NCBI GenBank assembly: GCA_002412925.1
Contig: DHVZ01000045.1
Coordinates: 1,541 to 65,540, forward strand
Source: Anaerolineales bacterium UBA5195
GTDB taxonomy: Bacteria > Chloroflexota > Anaerolineae > Anaerolineales > Villigracilaceae
Direction of reading: 5' to 3'
Length of the DNA stretch: 64,000 nt
Shown here: in pieces, positions 288-58,160 of the stretch
How positions within the stretch are numbered: position 1 is the first letter of the stretch
How the letters are laid out: each line of letters opens with the position of its first letter
Program-made: the position numbers and the translations under genes
The notes under the pieces: generated by a model
What the model was told of the DNA's origin: nothing
Databases searched by the model: none
What the model saw: only the letters and a program-made list of their open reading frames with translations

Positions 288-425
288 ACCTTTATGGTAT
301 TGATAACCTGTCATTTTGCAGGGTTTTTCCGGCCAGATCACGACCCTCCCTTCGTTCGAATCCGGTATACATGCTTTTAATCGACTTTAGACGTATTCCC
401 ATTTAATAATTCCCCGGAGGATAAA

Positions 426-1760
426 ATGTCACAACCCTTTGTTTCAAAACGCGCTCCAATTTACCAGGATGTACCCGAAGAGAAATGGAATGACTGGCGC
501 TGGCAATTAAGCAATCGTCTGAATAGCACCGAAGATATCGAAAAAGTATTAAGGCTGAGCGAGAGCGAACGCAAAGCGCTCAACACCAGCGGTCTGTTCC
601 GCGTGGATGTGACGCCCTACTTCATCTCCTTGATCGACCCAAACGACGCCGAAGACCCTATCCGCAAGCAGATCATCCCGTTGGCCGATGAAATGCAATC
701 TTTTACCGCCATGATGGAAGATTCGCTGGCCGAGGATCGTCACTCACCTGTGCCCGGGCTTGTCCACCGTTACCCGGACCGAGTGCTGATGCTGGTGACA
801 ACCCAGTGCGCGTCTTACTGCCGTTACTGCACCCGTTCGCGCATTGTCGGCGATCCTGGCCAGACCTTCAACCGCCAAGAATTCGAGATGCAGATCGAGT
901 ACATCAAAAACACCCCGCAGGTGCGCGATGTGCTGCTTTCTGGCGGCGACCCGCTGGTGCTGGCCCCGAAAATCCTGGAAGAGCTGCTCGGCCGCCTGCG
1001 TGAAATCCCGCATGTTGAGATCATCCGGATCGGCTCGCGTGTGCCAGTTTTCATGCCTCAGCGCATAACGCAGGAACTTTGTGATATGCTGGGTAAGTAT
1101 CACCCGCTGTGGTTGAATATCCACGTTAACCACCCAAACGAGATTTCTGCAGAACTGGAAGCGGCCACAGACCGTCTCAGCCGGGTGGGCATCCAGTTGG
1201 GCAACCAGTCGGTTTTGCTGGCGGGTGTGAACGACTGTGTCCATATTCAACGCGACCTGGTCCAAAAACTTGTTCGCATCCGTGTGCGCCCATACTATCT
1301 CTACCAGTGCGACCTGGTCGAAGGCGTTGGACACTTCCGTACCCCGGTGGCAAAGGGCATCGAGATTATCGAAGGCTTGCGCGGGCATACATCAGGATAT
1401 GCGGTGCCGCAGTACATCGTTGATGCGCCTGGCGGCGGCGGGAAAATCCCGGTCATGCCCAATTACCAGGTCAGTTCCTCGGATCACAAGGTTATTTTGC
1501 GTAACTACGAAGGATATATCACCACCTACGAAGAACCGACTGAGTATAAATCGCACGATCCAAAAACCTGCAAAGCCTGTCAGAACAAACGCATGGAACC
1601 TGGGCAGACTGGCATAACTGGCTTGCTGGATGGCGATGCCCTGTTTATTAAGCCCGAAGGTTTCGATGATTTACACAATCGTGGCGGCGGCCAGCACCGT
1701 CTCAGGGACGAAAGCAAGTGGAAACCGTTGGGCATCGGTTCCGACGATTCTGCAGACTAA
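426..1760 (+). CDS. kamA: Lysine 2,3-aminomutase (radical SAM, KamA/AblA family)
   Basis: 444-aa ORF with a GGAGG RBS. Radical-SAM cluster motif CASYCRYCTRS, SGGDPL motif, and KamA-like length with a C-terminal extension. Confidence 0.9.
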   Translation: MSQPFVSKRAPIYQDVPEEKWNDWRWQLSNRLNSTEDIEKVLRLSESERKALNTSGLFRVDVTPYFISLIDPNDAEDPIRKQIIPLADEMQSFTAMMEDSLAEDRHSPVPGLVHRYPDRVLMLVTTQCASYCRYCTRSRIVGDPGQTFNRQEFEMQIEYIKNTPQVRDVLLSGGDPLVLAPKILEELLGRLREIPHVEIIRIGSRVPVFMPQRITQELCDMLGKYHPLWLNIHVNHPNEISAELEAATDRLSRVGIQLGNQSVLLAGVNDCVHIQRDLVQKLVRIRVRPYYLYQCDLVEGVGHFRTPVAKGIEIIEGLRGHTSGYAVPQYIVDAPGGGGKIPVMPNYQVSSSDHKVILRNYEGYITTYEEPTEYKSHDPKTCKACQNKRMEPGQTGITGLLDGDALFIKPEGFDDLHNRGGGQHRLRDESKWKPLGIGSDDSAD

Positions 1761-2441: not shown

Positions 2442-3146
2442 ATGAACAAGTCAAAAGCTTTTGTTATGCTTGCATTGGCTATGGTGCTGGTAACGTCGGC
2501 CTGCTTGGTGACCTTGCCAGCACCGGCCTCTGTACCGGTCACGCTTACGCCTGACTTGGCCCAGACAGGAAACGCGCAAACCCTGACGGCTGTGCCTACA
2601 GCCACCCATACTGCGGTCCCGTTCCTTGCGACTGACACGCCTACAATCACGTTGACACCTTTTCCAAGCATAACACCGCTACCTAGCGCCACATCGACCG
2701 CGACTGAGACGCCATTCGGGTATTTTGAAACTTCCACACCGGTACCCCCCTCCGTCACAGTGCAGCCAACAGCTGAACCTCCAGACCCGGTTGAAGGCGC
2801 TAGCAACGAGCGTGGGGATTATCGGTGCAGGCTTGTTACAAAATCTCCCGCAAATTGGGCGGTTCTGCCAGCGCGCAGCTTGTGGAAGGTTTCGTGGACA
2901 TTGATCAACACCGGCCCAAAAACATGGGATAACAGTGTTGTGATTGCCTGGATTGAAGGTAATAAAATTGGTGTGGAAAAACAATACAATTTCATCAAGG
3001 ATGTCAAGCCTGGCCAGGATGTCAAGGCAATTATCTCGGTTTTGACCCCGGCAAAACCTGGTAACTACAGGTCAGTCTGGGGCTTGCGCTCGCTGAAGAC
3101 CAATAACATTTTTTGTATGTTTACCGTAAAAATCACGATTGAATAA
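2442..3146 (+). CDS. Lipoprotein-like secreted protein, Thr/Pro-rich linker plus NBR1-like domain
   Basis: ATG 2442 gives MNKSKAFVMLALAMVLVTSAC (lipobox-like). The C-terminal part, CRLVTKSPANW..WKVSWTLINTGPKTW..PGNYRSVWGL, parallels the preceding gene. Confidence 0.6.
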   Translation: MNKSKAFVMLALAMVLVTSACLVTLPAPASVPVTLTPDLAQTGNAQTLTAVPTATHTAVPFLATDTPTITLTPFPSITPLPSATSTATETPFGYFETSTPVPPSVTVQPTAEPPDPVEGASNERGDYRCRLVTKSPANWAVLPARSLWKVSWTLINTGPKTWDNSVVIAWIEGNKIGVEKQYNFIKDVKPGQDVKAIISVLTPAKPGNYRSVWGLRSLKTNNIFCMFTVKITIE

Positions 3147-6306: not shown

Positions 6307-7020
6307 CTATTCCACGTCTTCGATTGCATCAGACGCCTCACGCTGTTCTTGTTTTGCCTTGAGTCGCCCGTGAAGGCTGACGCTGACCACCCGTTCGGTG
6401 CCATTCAACAACTTTTTTATATTTGGTCTCAACGCCCAGGTAAGCAATGCCCCTGCAATCACACCGTAGAAGATACCGCTCCAATTAGCTTCGGAAGCGC
6501 CCAGCGCCAGTCGCAGGCTGAAGACCAGGATGGCAAAAAATGCCACGCTGAGGGTAGTCACAGAAGCGTATCCCAGGGTAAAAAACACCAGCGCCCCCAG
6601 CGGCAAGATGATCAGCACTGAAGGTATCCATAACCCAATCGCGCCACCCAAGGCTGGGGCGCCTCCAGCTCCTCCGCGCAGACGTTTGAAACGGCCCTTT
6701 TCGTCATATTCTGGCAAATACAGGGAATAGTTATGGCCAAGGATGGCGCCAATTGGGGCCAGGATATGCACCCATTGACTGGCTGGGCTGAGCCATTGCG
6801 CCAGCCAGACGGCTATCGCCCCTTTTAAGATGTCCATCAGCGCCGTCAAAAGCCCGGCCCAGAATCCGGCTGCGCGCATGGCATTTGTCCCGCCGGTGCG
6901 GCCGCTTTCCACCTGGCGAATATCTTTCCCGGTTTTTAATTTAACAATAATCAGCCCGGATGGAATCGAGCCGATCAGGTATCCTAAGAGAACTAAACCG
7001 ATATCAATTAAAAGTTGCAT
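6307..7020 (-). CDS. plsY: Glycerol-3-phosphate acyltransferase PlsY
   Basis: GSIPSGLIIVKL, SGRTGGTNAMRAAG and GHNYSLYL motifs in a polytopic membrane protein. GGAGG RBS. Confidence 0.9.
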   Translation of the reverse strand: MQLLIDIGLVLLGYLIGSIPSGLIIVKLKTGKDIRQVESGRTGGTNAMRAAGFWAGLLTALMDILKGAIAVWLAQWLSPASQWVHILAPIGAILGHNYSLYLPEYDEKGRFKRLRGGAGGAPALGGAIGLWIPSVLIILPLGALVFFTLGYASVTTLSVAFFAILVFSLRLALGASEANWSGIFYGVIAGALLTWALRPNIKKLLNGTERVVSVSLHGRLKAKQEQREASDAIEDVE

Positions 7021-15438: not shown

Positions 15439-16617
15439 ATGACATTGACAGCCGCAGTTGGACACGCACAGACGCTGGATGCTCGCGAAGCAGGCATGCA
15501 GGCCGCGCACCAGGCACTGAACAGCCTGGGGGCAGCCTCCCCGTCCCTGGGGTTGATTATCGTTCCGCATCGTTACGACCATCAACAGGTTATCAACGGG
15601 GCTGCAAGCCTGATGGCGAATGTTCCCATGATCGGATTCAGCGTCTCAGCCGGGCTGACGCAGACGGGCACCAATTCCCATTCAGTGATTGTTGCCATGC
15701 TTGCCGGGGATGAACTCCAGGCCGAAACTCACTGGTTTCCTTCATACAGCCAGGGCAGCGCAGAAACCGCCACACGTATTTCGCAATTATTGGGTTATGA
15801 ACAGCGCCCCGCTGAAAGTGTGATCTTTTTTGCCGATGGCTTGAATGGAAATGCCGAAGAGTTTTGTGCCGCACTGCCTGCCGGGATGCCGATTTTGGGA
15901 GGTCTCTCCAGCGGCGACCCGCAAGGCGCAAATAGCTTTCAGATTGCAGGCTTACAATCAGGGATGGGCAGCCTGGCGGCTGCTTTTCTGAGAGGAAATT
16001 TAAAAGTGGGGGTTGGCCATGGGCACGGCTGGCACCCGGTGGGCAGCCACTTTCGCGTAACTCGCTCACGCGGGTTTTGGCTGCGGACACTGGATGGACA
16101 ACCGGCATCTGAAACTTACTCCAAATTATTTGGACAGCAACCCCGTGAATGGGCTTCCCCGCCACTTAATTACATGGCCCGGATCTATCCACTTGGCTTC
16201 GAGCAGGAACACGGTGATGAATTATTGGTGCGCGCGCCGCTCAGGGTGGAGGCCGATGGCAGTTTTCGAATGAACTGCGGCCTGCGGGATGGCAGCGATG
16301 CTTACTTGATGGTTGGCAGCCCGGCTGATTGCCTTGCAACCGCCAGGCAGGCGACCCAGGATGCGCTTTTGGCCCTGGGTGACACCAAACCGGTCTTTGC
16401 CCTGGTGCTTGTCGATACTGCCTGGCAAATGCTCTTGCAGGCGCAAAGCGGCGCAGAGCTTAAGGCTGTTCAGGATCTGCTTGGAGAAGCTGTGCCGGTG
16501 GCTGGCGGGTACACGATTGGGCAAATCGTTCCATCTGTTCAAGTTAATGGACACCCGGGGTTTTTGAACCAGAATATTGTTGTGGCTGTCTTTGGCGAGA
16601 AAGAACCGACAGAATAA
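15439..16617 (+). CDS. FIST-domain sensory protein
   Basis: 392-aa soluble protein 11 nt downstream of the kinase, with an AGGAG RBS. The layout is consistent with FIST_N/FIST_C, judged by pattern recognition only. Confidence 0.6.
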   Translation: MTLTAAVGHAQTLDAREAGMQAAHQALNSLGAASPSLGLIIVPHRYDHQQVINGAASLMANVPMIGFSVSAGLTQTGTNSHSVIVAMLAGDELQAETHWFPSYSQGSAETATRISQLLGYEQRPAESVIFFADGLNGNAEEFCAALPAGMPILGGLSSGDPQGANSFQIAGLQSGMGSLAAAFLRGNLKVGVGHGHGWHPVGSHFRVTRSRGFWLRTLDGQPASETYSKLFGQQPREWASPPLNYMARIYPLGFEQEHGDELLVRAPLRVEADGSFRMNCGLRDGSDAYLMVGSPADCLATARQATQDALLALGDTKPVFALVLVDTAWQMLLQAQSGAELKAVQDLLGEAVPVAGGYTIGQIVPSVQVNGHPGFLNQNIVVAVFGEKEPTE

Positions 16618-16621
16618 ACTT

Positions 16622-16651
16622 AACCGCCCGCCTTCCGGCGGGCGGTTTTTT
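16622..16651 (+). terminator. Intrinsic terminator
   Basis: Stem CCGCCCGCC, loop TTCC, stem GGCGGGCGG, followed by TTTTTT. Confidence 0.75.
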
Positions 16652-16660
16652 GTAAGCTGA

Positions 16661-18034
16661 TCAGGCGGGCAGTGCAACTTGCGGCAAATCCTTCAAGGCT
16701 TCCTGGATTGCCCCGGTGGGATATTCATAATCGATCAGTTCGTTGTTTAAGTAGGACTGATAGGCCATCATATCGAAGTGACCGTGACCTGACAGGTTGA
16801 ACAGGATCGTGCGCTTCTCGCCTTTGGCTTTGGCATCCAATGCCTCGTCGATGGCCGCGCGGATGGCATGTGACGATTCGGGCGCGGGCAAAAAACCTTC
16901 GGTCTTGGTGAACTGAATGGCAGCCTCGAAAGTGGCAGTTTGTTGAACAGCGATAGCTTCCACCAGGCCGGCATCATAGAGCGCCGAAAGGCTGGGAGCC
17001 ATACCGTGATAGCGCAGCCCGCCCGCATGGATGCCCGGCGGCATGAAAGTGTGGCCGAGGGTGTGCATCTTGACAATCGGGGCCATCTGGGCGGTATCGC
17101 CATAGTCGAAGGTGTAGGCTCCCTTGGTCAGGGAGGGGGTTGCCGTTGGTTCAACGGCCAGCAGGCGGGTGCGCTGCCCGTTTTTGAGATTCTCGCGCAG
17201 GAACGGGTAGGCGATCCCGGCGAAGTTCGAGCCGCCGCCCACGCAGCCGATGACCACATCCGGGTATTCCCCGGCCAGGTCCATCTGCTTCAGGGCTTCT
17301 TCGCCGATGACGGTCTGGTGCATGAGCACATGGTTGAGCACCGAGCCCAGGCTGTATTTCTTCGTTCCGCCCGAGGTAGCGGCCACTTCCACCGCTTCCG
17401 AAATGGCAATCCCCAGCGAACCATTGTTATCAGGGTCAAGATCGAGCAGGGAGCGCCCGTAATTGGTGCGGTCCGTTGGGCTGGCATAGACCTGCGCGCC
17501 GTAGGTCTCCATGAAAATGCGGCGGTAAGGCTTCTGGTTGTACGAGACCTTGACCATGTACACTTCCAGGTCGATCCCAAAGAAGTTGCAGGCCATCGCC
17601 AGCGAGGTGCCCCACTGCCCGGCCCCGGTCTCAGTCGTCAGGGCCTTCGTCCCGGCGGCTTTGTTGTAAAAAGCCTGGGCAATGGCAGTGTTCGGCTTGT
17701 GACTGCCTACCGGCGATTCGCCTTCGTATTTGTAGTAAATATGTGCGGGCGTGCCCAGCGCCTTCTCCAGCCGTATGGCTCGGACCAGCGGGGTGGGGCG
17801 ATAAAGCCGGTAAATCTCGCGCACTTCCTCGGGGATCTGAATGTAGCGCTCAGTGCTGATTTCCTGCAGGATCAGTTCCATCGGGAACAGGACCGAGAGA
17901 AAATCAGGGGTGACCGGTTCCTTTGTACCAGGGTGCAGCACCGGGGCGGGCGGGACGGGGCTGTCGGCGTGGATGTTGTACCAGAATTTCGGCAGGTCGT
18001 TCTGGCTGAGGAAGAAACGGGTTTGGTCGGTCAT
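16661..18034 (-). CDS. trpB: TrpB2-type tryptophan synthase beta-like PLP enzyme (stand-alone)
   Basis: 457 aa with the long N-terminal extension typical of TrpB2. PLP-lysine region ESPVGSHKPNTA and the GGGSNFAG glycine loop. No trpA is adjacent. Confidence 0.9.
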   Translation of the reverse strand: MTDQTRFFLSQNDLPKFWYNIHADSPVPPAPVLHPGTKEPVTPDFLSVLFPMELILQEISTERYIQIPEEVREIYRLYRPTPLVRAIRLEKALGTPAHIYYKYEGESPVGSHKPNTAIAQAFYNKAAGTKALTTETGAGQWGTSLAMACNFFGIDLEVYMVKVSYNQKPYRRIFMETYGAQVYASPTDRTNYGRSLLDLDPDNNGSLGIAISEAVEVAATSGGTKKYSLGSVLNHVLMHQTVIGEEALKQMDLAGEYPDVVIGCVGGGSNFAGIAYPFLRENLKNGQRTRLLAVEPTATPSLTKGAYTFDYGDTAQMAPIVKMHTLGHTFMPPGIHAGGLRYHGMAPSLSALYDAGLVEAIAVQQTATFEAAIQFTKTEGFLPAPESSHAIRAAIDEALDAKAKGEKRTILFNLSGHGHFDMMAYQSYLNNELIDYEYPTGAIQEALKDLPQVALPA

Positions 18035-18067
18035 GGGAGACTCCTTGTTTGGGTATGGGTGGATTTT

Positions 18068-18247
18068 TCAGGGGATAAATATCGGGGAAGCGGCGTCGCC
18101 GTTTAACGAGATTTCAGCGAGGCGTTGGGCGTAGACCTGGTCCGCCGAGAGCGCCAGACCAGACTCCCCGCCAGCGGCCACCCGTTCTTGAGCAGGCAGC
18201 TCCTCCGTGCGGACATCGTCCAAAACAGCTATAGATTGCGGGTTCAT
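18068..18247 (-). CDS. Small acidic ORF (59 aa) between the T-box terminator and trpB2
   Basis: AAGGAGG RBS 5-6 nt before ATG 18247. Translation MNPQSIAVLDDVRTEELPAQERVAAGGESGLALSADQVYAQRLAEISLNGDAASPIFIP, stop TGA 18070-18068. It is below the ORF-track length cutoff and has no recognisable family. Confidence 0.35.
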   Translation of the reverse strand: MNPQSIAVLDDVRTEELPAQERVAAGGESGLALSADQVYAQRLAEISLNGDAASPIFIP

Positions 18248-18261
18248 AAGATCCTCCTTGG

Positions 18262-18636
18262 CAGGTTAAACAAAAACGCGTTCGTCCGTTGAACGGGACG
18301 AACGCGAAGTCCGTGGTGCCACCCGAATTAGGCTGCTGTTTTTTAACAAAAAATCCCGCGATGTTGCATCGGGATCCGGCCAGCCTCACTCTTTTTGGGT
18401 ACGCTCTCCGAGAGAGTTATACCCTCGCCCGCTAACGGGGGCTTCCGGCGCAGGTTACTTCCTTTGAACCGATCCCATCCGAGTCTCCGTTTGGGTATCC
18501 GTTATCAGGTTTCGCCCTGCAACTCCGAGGTCCATTCTGCGCTGTCGTTTCGGGCAGGACTCACACCGCTGGCTGCCTGCTCTCTGAACCGTCGTACCGC
18601 GCGTACTCGTCCTCATCGACGTTTTTTTATATATTG
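18262..18636 (-). promoter_or_regulatory. T-box riboswitch leader, tRNA-Trp specific
   Basis: Read on the minus strand. Stem I begins CGAUGAGGACGAGUA, with AGAGA (GA motif) and a distal GGUGUGA loop. The specifier loop is GAA-UGG-A (UGG at 18532-18534). The T-box sequence AAUUCGGGUGGCACCACGG lies at 18311-18330. The antiterminator is GGG[UGGCACC bulge]ACGGAC..GUUCGUCCC and is mutually exclusive with the terminator. Confidence 0.85.
18272..18306 (-). terminator. T-box expression-platform terminator
   Basis: CGCGUUCGUCCCG..CGGACGAACGCG hairpin followed by UUUUUG on the minus strand. Confidence 0.75.
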
Positions 18637-18642
18637 GGGCGT

Positions 18643-18670
18643 ATTATAGCCCTGTCTGTTTTCCTGTCAA
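18643..18670 (-). promoter_or_regulatory. Consensus sigma70-type promoter driving the T-box leader
   Basis: On the minus strand: TTGACA (18670-18665), 16-nt spacer, TATAAT (18648-18643). Confidence 0.7.
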
Positions 18671-18731: not shown

Positions 18732-19202
18732 ATGATTGAATTAGTGATTCCCGGGCGCGGCGCGCTGATCCTCGAACATCTTGTCATGGATGTGAACGGT
18801 ACGCTGGCGGTGGATGGTATACTATTGGAGGGTGTCGCCAGGCGCATCGGCGCGCTGCGTAATCGGCTGACGATCCACCTGCTGACGGCTGATACGCATG
18901 GCGGGCAGGCAGCCATCGATCACTTGCTAAATTTGCAAGCCGTGCGCATCCGGCAGGGTGATGAAGCCGGGCAAAAAGCGGCTTACATCCGGCAACTGGG
19001 CGCGGAGTGCGTGGCAGCCATTGGCCAGGGCGCAAACGATGCCCAGATGTTGAAAACCGCGGCGCTGGGGATCTGCGTCCTGTCTGAGGAAGGGCTGGCC
19101 ATTGAAACCCTGACCTCGGCCGATTTGCTGATGCCCGATATTTTAAGCGCCCTGGATTTGTTCGATAAACCTTTGCGATTGATTGCGAGTTTGCGCAAAT
19201 GA
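18732..19202 (+). CDS. HAD-superfamily 'soluble P-type ATPase'-like hydrolase (COG4087-type)
   Basis: MIELVIPGRG..LVMDVNGTLAVDG..HLLTADTHG..AIGQGANDAQMLKTAALGICV..ALDLFDKPLRLIASLR matches this small family along its whole length. Confidence 0.8.
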   Translation: MIELVIPGRGALILEHLVMDVNGTLAVDGILLEGVARRIGALRNRLTIHLLTADTHGGQAAIDHLLNLQAVRIRQGDEAGQKAAYIRQLGAECVAAIGQGANDAQMLKTAALGICVLSEEGLAIETLTSADLLMPDILSALDLFDKPLRLIASLRK

Positions 19203-20614
19203 CCTTTCCTGAAGATGAAAACTCCCTGAATGATGGCCAAGAGCCATCGGAACAGCCTGAATCCAACCCATTGGAGACAGGCGCTGAATTTGAGTTATCT
19301 GGGGAACAAGTTGTGCCGCCTTTCCCATCCGAGGAAGAGGCCGCGCCAGAATTTGATTTCCCCGATATGGAAGCAGAAGTGGCGGCCTTTCACCGCGAAC
19401 TGGGCGAACGCCAGTTCACCCCGGCTGTGCGTTCGCTCGAGGATGAACCGGCCCGGGAAAGTGCGCCGCGCCGCCGTCGCCGCAGCCAGCGCATCATCGA
19501 ACGGCCTGATGCCAGCGAGCTTGCTGAACGGCTTGAGTCGATTGCTTATCGCGCCGCTCCTACTTTTGATTTCTTCGTGTTTTCCTTCCTGGCCGGATGT
19601 ATCCTTGGGCTGGGTTATATCATCGATATGCCCGCCATCCTATTGCTCGGCATCCTGGTTGCGCCAATTGTTTCACCCTGGGTGGGAGCTGCCCTGGCTG
19701 CCTCCACTGGGGAAGTGCGTTTCTTCGGTCAGACACTTGGCGGATTCATCTCTGCGCTTGTCATGGTTTTTGTGGTCGGCCTGCTGGCCGGGCTGGGTTC
19801 GCGCATCTTCCAACCGCTCACCTCGTCACAGGCTTTTTTGCATTCCCGGTTGTGGTGGCCTGACCTGCTCCTGCTGGTTCTTGGAACGGTCATCCTGGTG
19901 ATTGCTTTTATTCAGACTGAAAACAAACCAGCCCTGGCCAGCCTGATGGTGGCCTACGAACTCTATCTGCCGGTCAGCGCTGCCGGTTTTGGGCTGGGAT
20001 CAGGTGTTCAAGGCTTATGGCCCGAAGCCGGGCTGGTCTTCTTGATCCACCTGGCGCTTTCGCTGATTGTCAGCCTGATCGTGTTTTTCTATATGGGTTT
20101 CCGCCCACTGGAGCCTCGGGGATATTTGCTGACTGCCGGTATCGTGGTGGCTTCGCTGGTCATCGTGGCGGGATGCAGCCTGATCAATATCCGCGGCGAC
20201 CAGGGAGAGACCACGCCCATCATGGCAGCTGCAACCCCGACCCTCAAGCCTTCCCTACAGACGGTGACACCCACTCCCGCTGCTATCCCGCCTACCTCTA
20301 CGCGCCGGGCGACCACGCCAACCGCAGCCGCCACGCCGACGGAAGGCTTTACTCCCGGCCCCACGTTGTTGCCCACCCCGGTCTATGGACGGGTGCAATC
20401 GCAATCTGGCGGTGTATATATTCGTGTCAAACCGGGTGGGCAGACGATCACCACTGTTGAGAATGGCTATCTGGTCGAAATTCTGGGTGACGCGCCAGTC
20501 ATCCTGGAAGGCAGCACCTGGATCCACGTCATCGTCAAAACGCCTGCGCGTGATATCGACGGGTGGGTGTTATTGAATTTGATTACCACCGCAACTCCCT
20601 CTGGTTCGCCGTAA
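19199..20614 (+). CDS. Membrane protein with acidic N-terminal region, multi-TM core (possibly DUF389-like), Pro/Thr linker and C-terminal SH3b-like domain
   Basis: ATGA overlap with the upstream gene. About 6 TM segments. C-terminal GGVYIRVKPGG..GYLVEILGD..WIHV..DGWV resembles bacterial SH3. Confidence 0.5.
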   Translation: MTFPEDENSLNDGQEPSEQPESNPLETGAEFELSGEQVVPPFPSEEEAAPEFDFPDMEAEVAAFHRELGERQFTPAVRSLEDEPARESAPRRRRRSQRIIERPDASELAERLESIAYRAAPTFDFFVFSFLAGCILGLGYIIDMPAILLLGILVAPIVSPWVGAALAASTGEVRFFGQTLGGFISALVMVFVVGLLAGLGSRIFQPLTSSQAFLHSRLWWPDLLLLVLGTVILVIAFIQTENKPALASLMVAYELYLPVSAAGFGLGSGVQGLWPEAGLVFLIHLALSLIVSLIVFFYMGFRPLEPRGYLLTAGIVVASLVIVAGCSLINIRGDQGETTPIMAAATPTLKPSLQTVTPTPAAIPPTSTRRATTPTAAATPTEGFTPGPTLLPTPVYGRVQSQSGGVYIRVKPGGQTITTVENGYLVEILGDAPVILEGSTWIHVIVKTPARDIDGWVLLNLITTATPSGSP

Positions 20615-58070: not shown

Positions 58071-58076
58071 TGTGTG

Positions 58077-58160
58077 TGCCGAAGGAGGGACTTGAACCCT
58101 CACTCCCTTGCAGGAACTAAGCCCTGAACCTAGCGCGTCTGCCAATTCCGCCACTTCGGC
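58077..58160 (-). tRNA. tRNA-Leu (anticodon CAG)
   Basis: The reverse complement folds by hand into a cloverleaf. Acceptor GCCGAAG/CTTCGGC, D-arm GCGG..CGCG, anticodon arm CTAGG-TTCAGGG-CTTAG, a long variable arm, T-arm GAGGG-TTCAAGT-CCCTC, discriminator A. No encoded CCA. Confidence 0.9.

Follow-up and report, generated by a model that had tools for sequence, protein, structure and literature searches.

A 64,000-nucleotide (nt) stretch of contig DHVZ01000045.1 from Anaerolineales bacterium UBA5195, analyzed here as a whole and called the window, carries on its minus strand a tRNA-Trp-specific T-box leader, a small open reading frame (sORF) of 59 amino acids (aa) and trpB2, a gene for a TrpB-like pyridoxal phosphate (PLP) enzyme. 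The pairing of a T-box with a trpB-like gene is already known in the Chloroflexi, where Wels et al. (2008; PMC2494555) reported T-boxes in Dehalococcoides ahead of “trpE and trpB-like” genes—the same phylum and the same class of regulated gene—and taken alone it extends that 2008 observation to the Anaerolineae, a group in which we found no paper on T-boxes (much subscription literature lay outside the search, and absence is not proof). What the locus adds is the leader ORF: a large, lineage-specific and previously undescribed peptide family with a near-invariant Pro-stop, encoded downstream of a riboswitch-like RNA sensor and upstream of an enzyme gene of the Trp pathway. The anatomy of this sORF points to an arrest-type leader peptide at least as strongly as to a partner protein. 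The features of the locus, in order of transcription, are as follows.

18643..18670, minus strand: sigma-70-type promoter (−35 TTGACA at 18670..18665, 16-nt spacer, −10 TATAAT at 18648..18643)
18291..18628, minus strand: T-box leader RNA specific for tRNA-Trp, 338 nt, matching RF00230
18531..18537, minus strand: specifier-loop core GAA-UGG-A, with the UGG Trp codon at 18534..18532
18345..18377, minus strand: stem III hairpin (GGAUCCCG...CGCGGGAU) and a U6 run, about 25 nt upstream of the antiterminator
18294..18325, minus strand: antiterminator, helix CGGG/CCCG plus ACGGAC/GUUCGU around the 7-nt bulge UGGCACC (18321..18315)
18272..18306, minus strand: intrinsic terminator, 11-bp stem (18306..18277) with 8 of 11 pairs G-C, then a U-run
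18253..18259, minus strand: Shine-Dalgarno sequence (SD) of the sORF, AAGGAGG, 5 nt before the ATG
18068..18247, minus strand: sORF, 59 aa plus a UGA stop, MNPQSIAVLDDVRTEELPAQERVAAGGESGLALSADQVYAQRLAEISLNGDAASPIFIP
18068..18079, minus strand: codons UUU-AUC-CCC-UGA (Phe57-Ile58-Pro59-stop), the near-invariant family end and proposed slow-termination site
18035..18067, minus strand: sORF-trpB2 spacer, 33 nt, C-rich and G-poor (39% C, 9% G), unstructured, with the trpB2 SD AAGGAG at 18046..18041
16661..18034, minus strand: trpB2, TrpB-like PLP enzyme of 457 aa with the PLP-lysine motif GSHKPN and a PALP domain

The T-box leader and trpB2

The promoter hexamers match the consensus at 12 of 12 positions, and both are kept in close relatives. 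Behind them, the RF00230 covariance model aligns end to end (positions 1–219 of 219; 91.6 bits, E = 1.4e-20), with the GA motif, the AGAGA box and the distal loop motif GGUG..A present; stem I holds a specifier codon followed by a purine. The antiterminator with its 7-nt UGGN bulge and the downstream intrinsic terminator are mutually exclusive, the 5′ arm of the terminator overlapping the 3′ strand of the antiterminator; in predicted structures the antiterminator alone folds at −9.9 kcal/mol, and the 76-nt region that includes the terminator at −28 kcal/mol (z = −3.1). For the motif GGTGGNACCRCG, 0.07 copies would be expected in the 64-kb window, and one is present. The first-pass annotation, made from the letters alone, had named a TTGACA-16-TATAAT promoter on the minus strand, a GAA-UGG-A specifier loop, a UGGCACC bulge and an antiterminator whose 3′ side is the 5′ arm of the terminator; all of these were located (specifier at 18537..18531, bulge at 18321..18315, terminator stem within 18306..18272), and both alternative structures fold as expected. 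Its overall view, that a Trp-specific T-box switch controls a small ORF and a locally stand-alone TrpB2, is thereby borne out in the UGG specifier, the promoter and the terminator/antiterminator pair.

The same annotation called the T-box complete and “canonical.” The first word holds, with a full-length model match containing all parts, but the second is too strong, because the leader exceeds the consensus by about 120 nt (338 versus ~219 nt) and falls under the gathering score. Three clade-typical insertions of about 46, 31, and 38 nt lie in stem II, after stem IIA/B and inside stem III, respectively. One of these insertions, likewise a departure from the canonical form, is the internal stem III hairpin with its U-run. 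Nine of nine close relatives keep it, U-run included, with compensatory changes in the stem, and it resembles an intrinsic terminator within the leader or a site at which RNA polymerase pauses. Known Trp T-boxes (RF00230) otherwise share with the window a GA-motif stem I, the AGAGA box, the GAA-UGG-A loop, stems II, IIA/B and III, the 7-nt UGGN bulge and the competing intrinsic terminator; they differ from it in these insertions, the stem III hairpin among them, and in the conserved leader ORF that here stands between T-box and enzyme gene.

Two points count against the assignment. The score lies 1.4 bits under the Rfam gathering score of 93 bits, and the whole-window Rfam scan at the gathering threshold missed the element, which was seen in a sub-region scan using an E-value threshold. 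We attribute the shortfall to the ~115 nt of insertions and file the element as a T-box because in 13 of 20 relatives the homologous leader does reach the gathering score, with 93–114 bits. Secondly, no tRNA-Trp gene, the source of the discriminator base, is present in the window or in 88 relative loci. Bacterial tRNA-Trp generally carries G73, and the bulge UGGC would pair with a tRNA 3′ end reading GCCA. A 91-nt ARAGORN call for tRNA-Trp(CCA) in relative L058 (199..289, minus strand) was rejected as a false positive, being GC-rich, coding-like, and without an Rfam tRNA match; the window’s sole tRNA gene, and its sole Rfam match at gathering level, is a tRNA-Leu(CAG) at 58076..58160 on the minus strand.

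Comparison across 80 species-level trpB2 loci shows how widely the specificity elements are kept. GGTGGNACC occurs within 1.1 kb upstream of trpB2 in 50 of the 80, with C at N in 49 and T in L049. GAAUGGN stands at the same site after the AGAGA box in 48 of these 50 bulge-carrying leaders; L075 has CAAUGGA, and L001, without an exact AGAGA box, was left out of specifier scoring. Among 63 leaders, the antiterminator helix comes in 18 sequence variants with compensatory changes at pairs 4–6, and in 62 of them C occupies the position expected to pair with the tRNA discriminator, which lends indirect support to a G73 partner. In about a dozen other loci the order is T-box, trpS, trpB2. With its UGG specifier and UGGC bulge, the leader is, judged by sequence, covariance model and covariation, built to bind uncharged tRNA-Trp. 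RNA polymerase starting at the strong sigma-70 promoter would transcribe this long-form leader, and binding of uncharged tRNA-Trp would stabilize the weak antiterminator at the cost of the much stronger terminator. From the established T-box mechanism we infer that low Trp charging would then give read-through into a bicistronic sORF-trpB2 mRNA, and the T-box/trpB2 pairing adds direct genomic evidence that TrpB2 expression responds to Trp-tRNA starvation.

The downstream gene is a TrpB2, as first annotated. Its product scores 716 bits with NF009057 (cut-off 366) and 621 bits with TIGR01415 (cut-off 519), both above the curated cut-offs, while the TrpB1 model TIGR00263 gives 152 bits, under its cut-off of 392; the nearest solved chains are of the TrpB2 type, namely 6hul_B, 4qys_B, and 6hte_B (407–455 bits), versus about 115 bits for TrpB1 chains. 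The best matches are from uncultured Anaerolineae/Chloroflexota, at up to 90–91% identity. Judged by family membership only, the enzyme would make Trp from indole plus serine or phosphoserine. It shares with its family (TIGR01415, NF009057; 4qys_B, 6hul_B, 6hte_B) a full-length match, the PLP-lysine motif and a place outside a trp operon, and stands apart as a bacterial (Anaerolineae) member under direct tRNA-Trp control with a leader ORF. No trp gene is found among its neighbors in the window; it is flanked by genes for a HAD-like protein, a DUF389 protein, a phosphoglucomutase, a FIST protein, a GAF histidine kinase, and GyrB, and because these are unrelated to Trp metabolism, the description of this copy as stand-alone is locally correct.

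The sORF as a selected peptide family

The first-pass annotation had also described an acidic 59-aa ORF with an AAGGAGG ribosome-binding site before trpB2, and this is what the locus holds: 9 acidic and 3 basic residues, no Trp codon, and the SD at 18259..18253. Close homologues number 42 (58–70 aa), and profile homologues about 100 clusters at 90% identity (47–81 aa). A profile search of 1.84 billion representatives returned 116 matches, of which about 110 are proteins of 47–101 aa with the match reaching the last residue; the family as a whole belongs to the Anaerolineae and, when clustered at 50% identity, comprises about 110 clusters. Two loci came from a metagenome scan that used the peptide as query. 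In relatives the peptide is conserved and intact, so that the refuting condition named in the first-pass annotation, loss or disruption in close relatives, does not apply. It has no Pfam, NCBIfam, or PDB relative. “Unannotated,” the earlier word for it, is not true everywhere: some metagenome-assembled genome records list a “hypothetical protein,” the name that members carry wherever the sources name them. We found no paper on a leader ORF or arrest peptide upstream of trpB2, in a search that covered the subscription literature in part, and here too absence is not proof.

Every family member examined in its locus starts with an ATG behind a strong SD. The conserved Phe, Ile/Val, and Pro use all of their synonymous codons, and TAA, TAG, and TGA all serve as stop. 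For four close relatives and the more distant L002 and L005, where dS (synonymous substitution rate) could be estimated, the ratio of nonsynonymous to synonymous rates (dN/dS) is 0.26–0.54 for the sORF versus 0.04–0.08 for trpB2 of the same loci. Free synonymous codon use together with this ratio places selection at the level of the peptide, but in relaxed form; by these sequence measures the sORF is a genuinely translated peptide under purifying selection that is relaxed relative to trpB2.

These data bear directly on whether the sORF is there by chance, within a long 5′ untranslated region, or else is an attenuator of the trpL type read through Trp codons. It is short, it sits in the leader region and it lacks a Pfam or NCBIfam family, as either idea would have it. 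Against a chance origin stand length, start, SD, and C-terminus, all conserved in more than 100 diverged clusters, and dN/dS below one. An attenuator of the trpL type is contradicted by the absence of Trp codons in the window copy and by the rarity of Trp in the family (0.1% of residues; any Trp in only 8 of 107 members), and the sORF starts 30 nt downstream of the terminator stem, with no overlap. We consider both ideas effectively refuted, given the synonymous codon pattern, dN/dS, and C-terminal conservation. The earlier argument that an ORF without Trp codons is no leader-peptide attenuator therefore holds for codon-based attenuation of the trpL type; it does not extend to leader peptides of the arrest type.

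Conservation is confined to the C-terminal ~39 residues. Counted back from the C-terminus, three blocks recur: AP.F[VI]P at −6 to −1, D.SLPA.QVL.E[QR] at −28 to −16, and LQE[QR] at −38 to −35, with F(−3), [IV](−2), P(−1), A(−23), V(−20), Q(−37), and E(−36) nearly invariant. The spacing of the blocks to the C-terminus shifts by only 1–2 residues in 80% of members, and the N-terminal residues (at least 18) are free in sequence and length. The end itself is the most striking element: 107 of 109 representatives end in Pro (FVP in 49, FIP in 45, the rest [FYL][IVLG]P), and the last three positions carry 4.4, 2.9, and 3.4 bits of information. An AlphaFold model from a 48-sequence alignment has a mean predicted local distance difference test (pLDDT) score of 64 and one helix (residues 35–48), the rest being disordered; confidence in the helix is moderate (pLDDT of about 80 at residues 31–40).

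A possible cis-acting peptide or partner protein

In all eight genomic look-ups of family members a gene follows the sORF immediately; in six it encodes a full-length PALP protein of 457–458 aa (TrpB2), and in two (P0037 and P0144) its start is truncated and unannotated. One of the eight contexts has completely different neighbors, and in each of the eight the sORF is the first reading frame behind a Trp T-box. The presence of the sORF is patchy among TrpB2s of 78–90% identity: on the TrpB2 tree, loci with the sORF, with a mini-ORF (below), with both, or with neither are interleaved, and no TrpB2 alignment column tracks sORF presence. It is very improbable that the sORF is a precursor or scaffold peptide, akin to those of RiPPs (peptides made by ribosomes and modified after translation) or to a carrier, whose C-terminus would be modified by the TrpB-like PLP enzyme. 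The idea draws on a small peptide with a conserved C-terminal motif adjoining an enzyme gene; the enzyme, however, is an orthodox TIGR01415 member that is 71–92% identical between loci with and without the peptide, no tailoring, transport, or protease genes are linked, the neighbors differ between loci, and control by tRNA-Trp argues for ordinary Trp supply.

The sORF could, on another account, be a generic translated spacer, providing ribosome cover against Rho or RNases or termination-reinitiation at trpB2, with the conserved residues secondary (e.g., to translation speed). The spacers of 23–33 nt in the window’s subfamily would suit such a role, as would the unstructured, C-rich sORF-trpB2 spacer, the optional and labile nature of the sORF and its relaxed dN/dS. 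We nonetheless hold this account improbable, since synonymous sites vary but the near-invariant residues persist in over 100 clusters defined at 50% identity, and since coupling is implausible at the 100–200-nt spacers of many members. Two forms of direct linkage between the reading frames were also tried and rejected. Base pairing of the trpB2 SD with the 3′ end of the sORF, as in a sequestering hairpin, proved weak and inconsistent, and fusion of the sORF or a mini-ORF to trpB2, by +1 frameshift or read-through, is contradicted by frames and downstream ORFs that are inconsistent across loci. In the window the sORF and trpB2 do lie in one frame, 213 nt apart (18034..18247, minus strand), with UGA and 11 sense codons between them; a read-through fusion is unlikely, because the shared frame is not conserved in relatives.

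Related leaders carry still shorter ORFs. In at least 13 loci (L008, L010, L012, L014, L015, L017, L018, L025, L032, L037, L086, L087, and L088) there are mini-ORFs of 8–10 aa, M-x(3-6)-F-H-P-P, whose codons (TTY CAY CCR CCY) differ at the third position only and whose stop is invariably UGA, with (A/G)GG next; they lie between sORF and trpB2, alone, or between trpS and trpB2, and none is present in the window. A mini-ORF in L027 ends in ...FRPP-UGA, and one in L009 is a TTG-start variant with the stop replaced (LHIITFHPPGTQPNQKT, then a stop). A third type, of 15 aa (MNQ[YF][AF][IV]IPPK[KQ]DRPP, then UGA-AGG), lies between trpS and trpB2 in L031 (~2817..2864) and L042 (~2825..2872), its ATG overlapping the trpS stop in L042. 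Peptides of 8–10 aa are too short for ordinary proteins.

We tentatively favor, at somewhat under an even chance, a sORF that acts in cis as a nascent peptide slowing termination at its own Pro-stop. With the conserved part of the peptide still in the exit tunnel, peptidyl-tRNA-Pro at the stop codon would be released slowly, in a termination arrest of the TnaC or NSP-stop type, and the paused ribosome, 20–30 nt upstream of the trpB2 start, could modulate initiation or re-initiation there or protect the transcript. The preference stems from the invariant terminal Pro, a conserved length that roughly matches what the tunnel holds, and the lack of a fold, and equally from the lability of the element, its presence without co-variation in TrpB2, and the co-occurrence of Pro-Pro-stop mini-ORFs. 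The sORF also lies upstream of, and in the same predicted transcript as, the gene that it would regulate, as is expected of an arrest peptide.

Two systems established by experiment frame this proposal. TnaC, the leader peptide of Escherichia coli tnaCAB, stalls at Pro-UGA in response to Trp; its terminal Pro is essential, termination is inhibited, and the nascent peptide acts within the exit tunnel (PMC8450073). Like the sORF, it is a small ORF upstream of a gene for an indole/Trp-metabolizing enzyme, with Pro as last residue directly before the stop. The two have no sequence similarity, however, and differ in length (59 versus 24 aa) and in stop usage (all three stops in the sORF family, UGA and release factor 2 only in TnaC); the sORF has no evident Rho-site arrangement and lies downstream of a T-box, and stalling is here a proposal from sequence. 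The NSP-stop and NAP-stop peptides, which are encoded ahead of secA and secDF, cause stalling when the A site is occupied by a stop codon (Fujiwara et al., 2024; PMC10987492). They share with the sORF family the C-terminal x-x-Pro before the stop, a patchy distribution, and a variable N-terminal part. Yet they are secretory or membrane monitoring substrates that serve protein-localization genes and have SD-sequestering stem-loops, whereas the sORF has no signal sequence, a metabolic target, and no conserved stem-loop.

Several observations weigh against slow termination in cis. Across the family, 14 to 209 nt separate the sORF stop from the start codon that follows (23–33 nt in close relatives), and spacer length varies over 18–209 nt. 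In L084 (2678..2808) and L007, inserted REP-like hairpins, formed by long inverted repeats, separate the sORF stop from trpB2 and stretch the spacer from about 25 to 98–131 nt with both ORFs intact, so that such repeats are tolerated. No stable or conserved SD-sequestering structure links the sORF stop to the trpB2 SD, and the identity and 3′ context of the stop codon vary freely. The other coupling element known for arrest peptides would be a Rho site masked by the stalled ribosome; the window’s spacer is C-rich and G-poor, but a mere 33 nt in length. By the family hidden Markov model (HMM), a sORF homologue in L018 (~421..616) and L009 (2..97) precedes trpS rather than trpB2, in the order T-box, sORF, trpS, mini-ORF, trpB2; what is invariant is therefore that, in a trpB2 operon, no other ORF comes between the Trp T-box terminator and the sORF, rather than a place directly before trpB2. 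Lastly, motifs that reach up to 38 residues from the C-terminus, together with a predicted amphipathic helix, would equally fit a peptide that binds through short linear motifs.

This last point leads to the partner protein suggested in the first-pass annotation, i.e., a trans-acting, disordered, acidic micropeptide whose SLPAxQVLxEQ helix and C-terminal F-[IV]-P would dock to a target—TrpB2, TrpRS (tryptophanyl-tRNA synthetase), or another Trp-pathway protein—and activate, inhibit, or tether it, with stoichiometric co-expression from the T-box transcript. We regard this as doubtful, though worth serious consideration. The sORF has its own strong SD and ATG, is under purifying selection at the peptide level and has a helix predicted with moderate confidence, and docking motifs anchored by a carboxylate likewise typically have an invariant C-terminal residue. 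The sORF always shares a transcript with trpB2, even in the two operons with trpS between them, and variable spacing and the missing coupling RNA structure would be irrelevant to a trans product. On the contrary, the sORF is absent from many genomes whose TrpB2s are 78–84% identical and interleaved on the tree, with no TrpB2 column co-varying; its N-terminal third is unconstrained, and conservation ends at about tunnel length; its dN/dS is about five times that of TrpB2; and sister leaders have 8–10-aa Pro-Pro-stop ORFs at the same place. Should a micropeptide that binds TrpB2 be present after all, it would offer a long-sought handle on the regulation of stand-alone TrpB2 without TrpA.

If instead the sORF is an arrest peptide, as we tentatively favor, it would be a rare metabolic-pathway arrest peptide outside the Proteobacteria, an independent parallel to TnaC in indole/Trp metabolism, and a nascent-peptide sensor in tandem with a T-box. 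Taken further, the F-[IV]-P-stop sORF and the FHPP-UGA mini-ORFs might form a new family of metabolite- or tRNA-charge-sensing termination-arrest peptides in series with the T-box, i.e., a two-input gate of RNA and ribosome in the Chloroflexota that evolved independently of TnaC. Uncharged tRNA-Trp would gate transcription, and the nascent peptide, sensing free Trp, indole, or Trp-tRNA (via competition at UGA), would gate translation of an indole-salvaging TrpB2; this extension we consider unlikely as it stands. In E. coli, the 14-aa PepNL arrests at an obligatory UGA and is relieved by Trp-tRNA read-through (Ando et al., 2025; PMC11890864). PepNL and the FHPP-UGA mini-ORFs of the relatives have no sequence similarity, but both are very short peptides ending at an obligatory UGA, and PepNL offers a ready explanation for that of the mini-ORFs, which may sense Trp-tRNA by competition at this codon.

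TrpRS tails and neighboring genes

In eight relatives (L009, L018, L029, L044, L046, L047, L051, and L059), the TrpRS encoded upstream of trpB2 has a C-terminal tail of 16–33 aa past ...KMGL(L), and four of these tails end in G[VIA]FC-stop. The association of tail length with a position upstream of trpB2 is confounded by phylogeny, the upstream set being one clade. The tail in L029 (...QRVLAQ...YLFVP-stop) was considered as a fused C-terminal half of the sORF and rejected, the likeness being one by eye, with no match to the family HMM.

One further feature probably closes the trpB2 transcription unit on its 3′ side.

16622..16647, both strands: probable bidirectional terminator, a G+C-rich 11-bp hairpin directly 3′ of the trpB2 stop, shared with the convergent FIST gene

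The U-run of this hairpin is good on the plus strand and weak on the minus strand. The FIST-domain gene itself (15439..16617, plus strand) is convergent with trpB2, and a HAD-like gene (156 aa) and a DUF389 gene (18732..20614, plus strand) are divergent from the T-box promoter; a functional tie of these three neighbors to Trp metabolism is not evident. In relative L006, a SAM (S-adenosylmethionine) riboswitch (RF00162, 84 bits) lies at 6599..6706 on the minus strand, about 2.2 kb downstream of trpB2. The synteny of the FIST gene on one side, and of the HAD-like and DUF389 genes on the other, is kept in the closest relatives.

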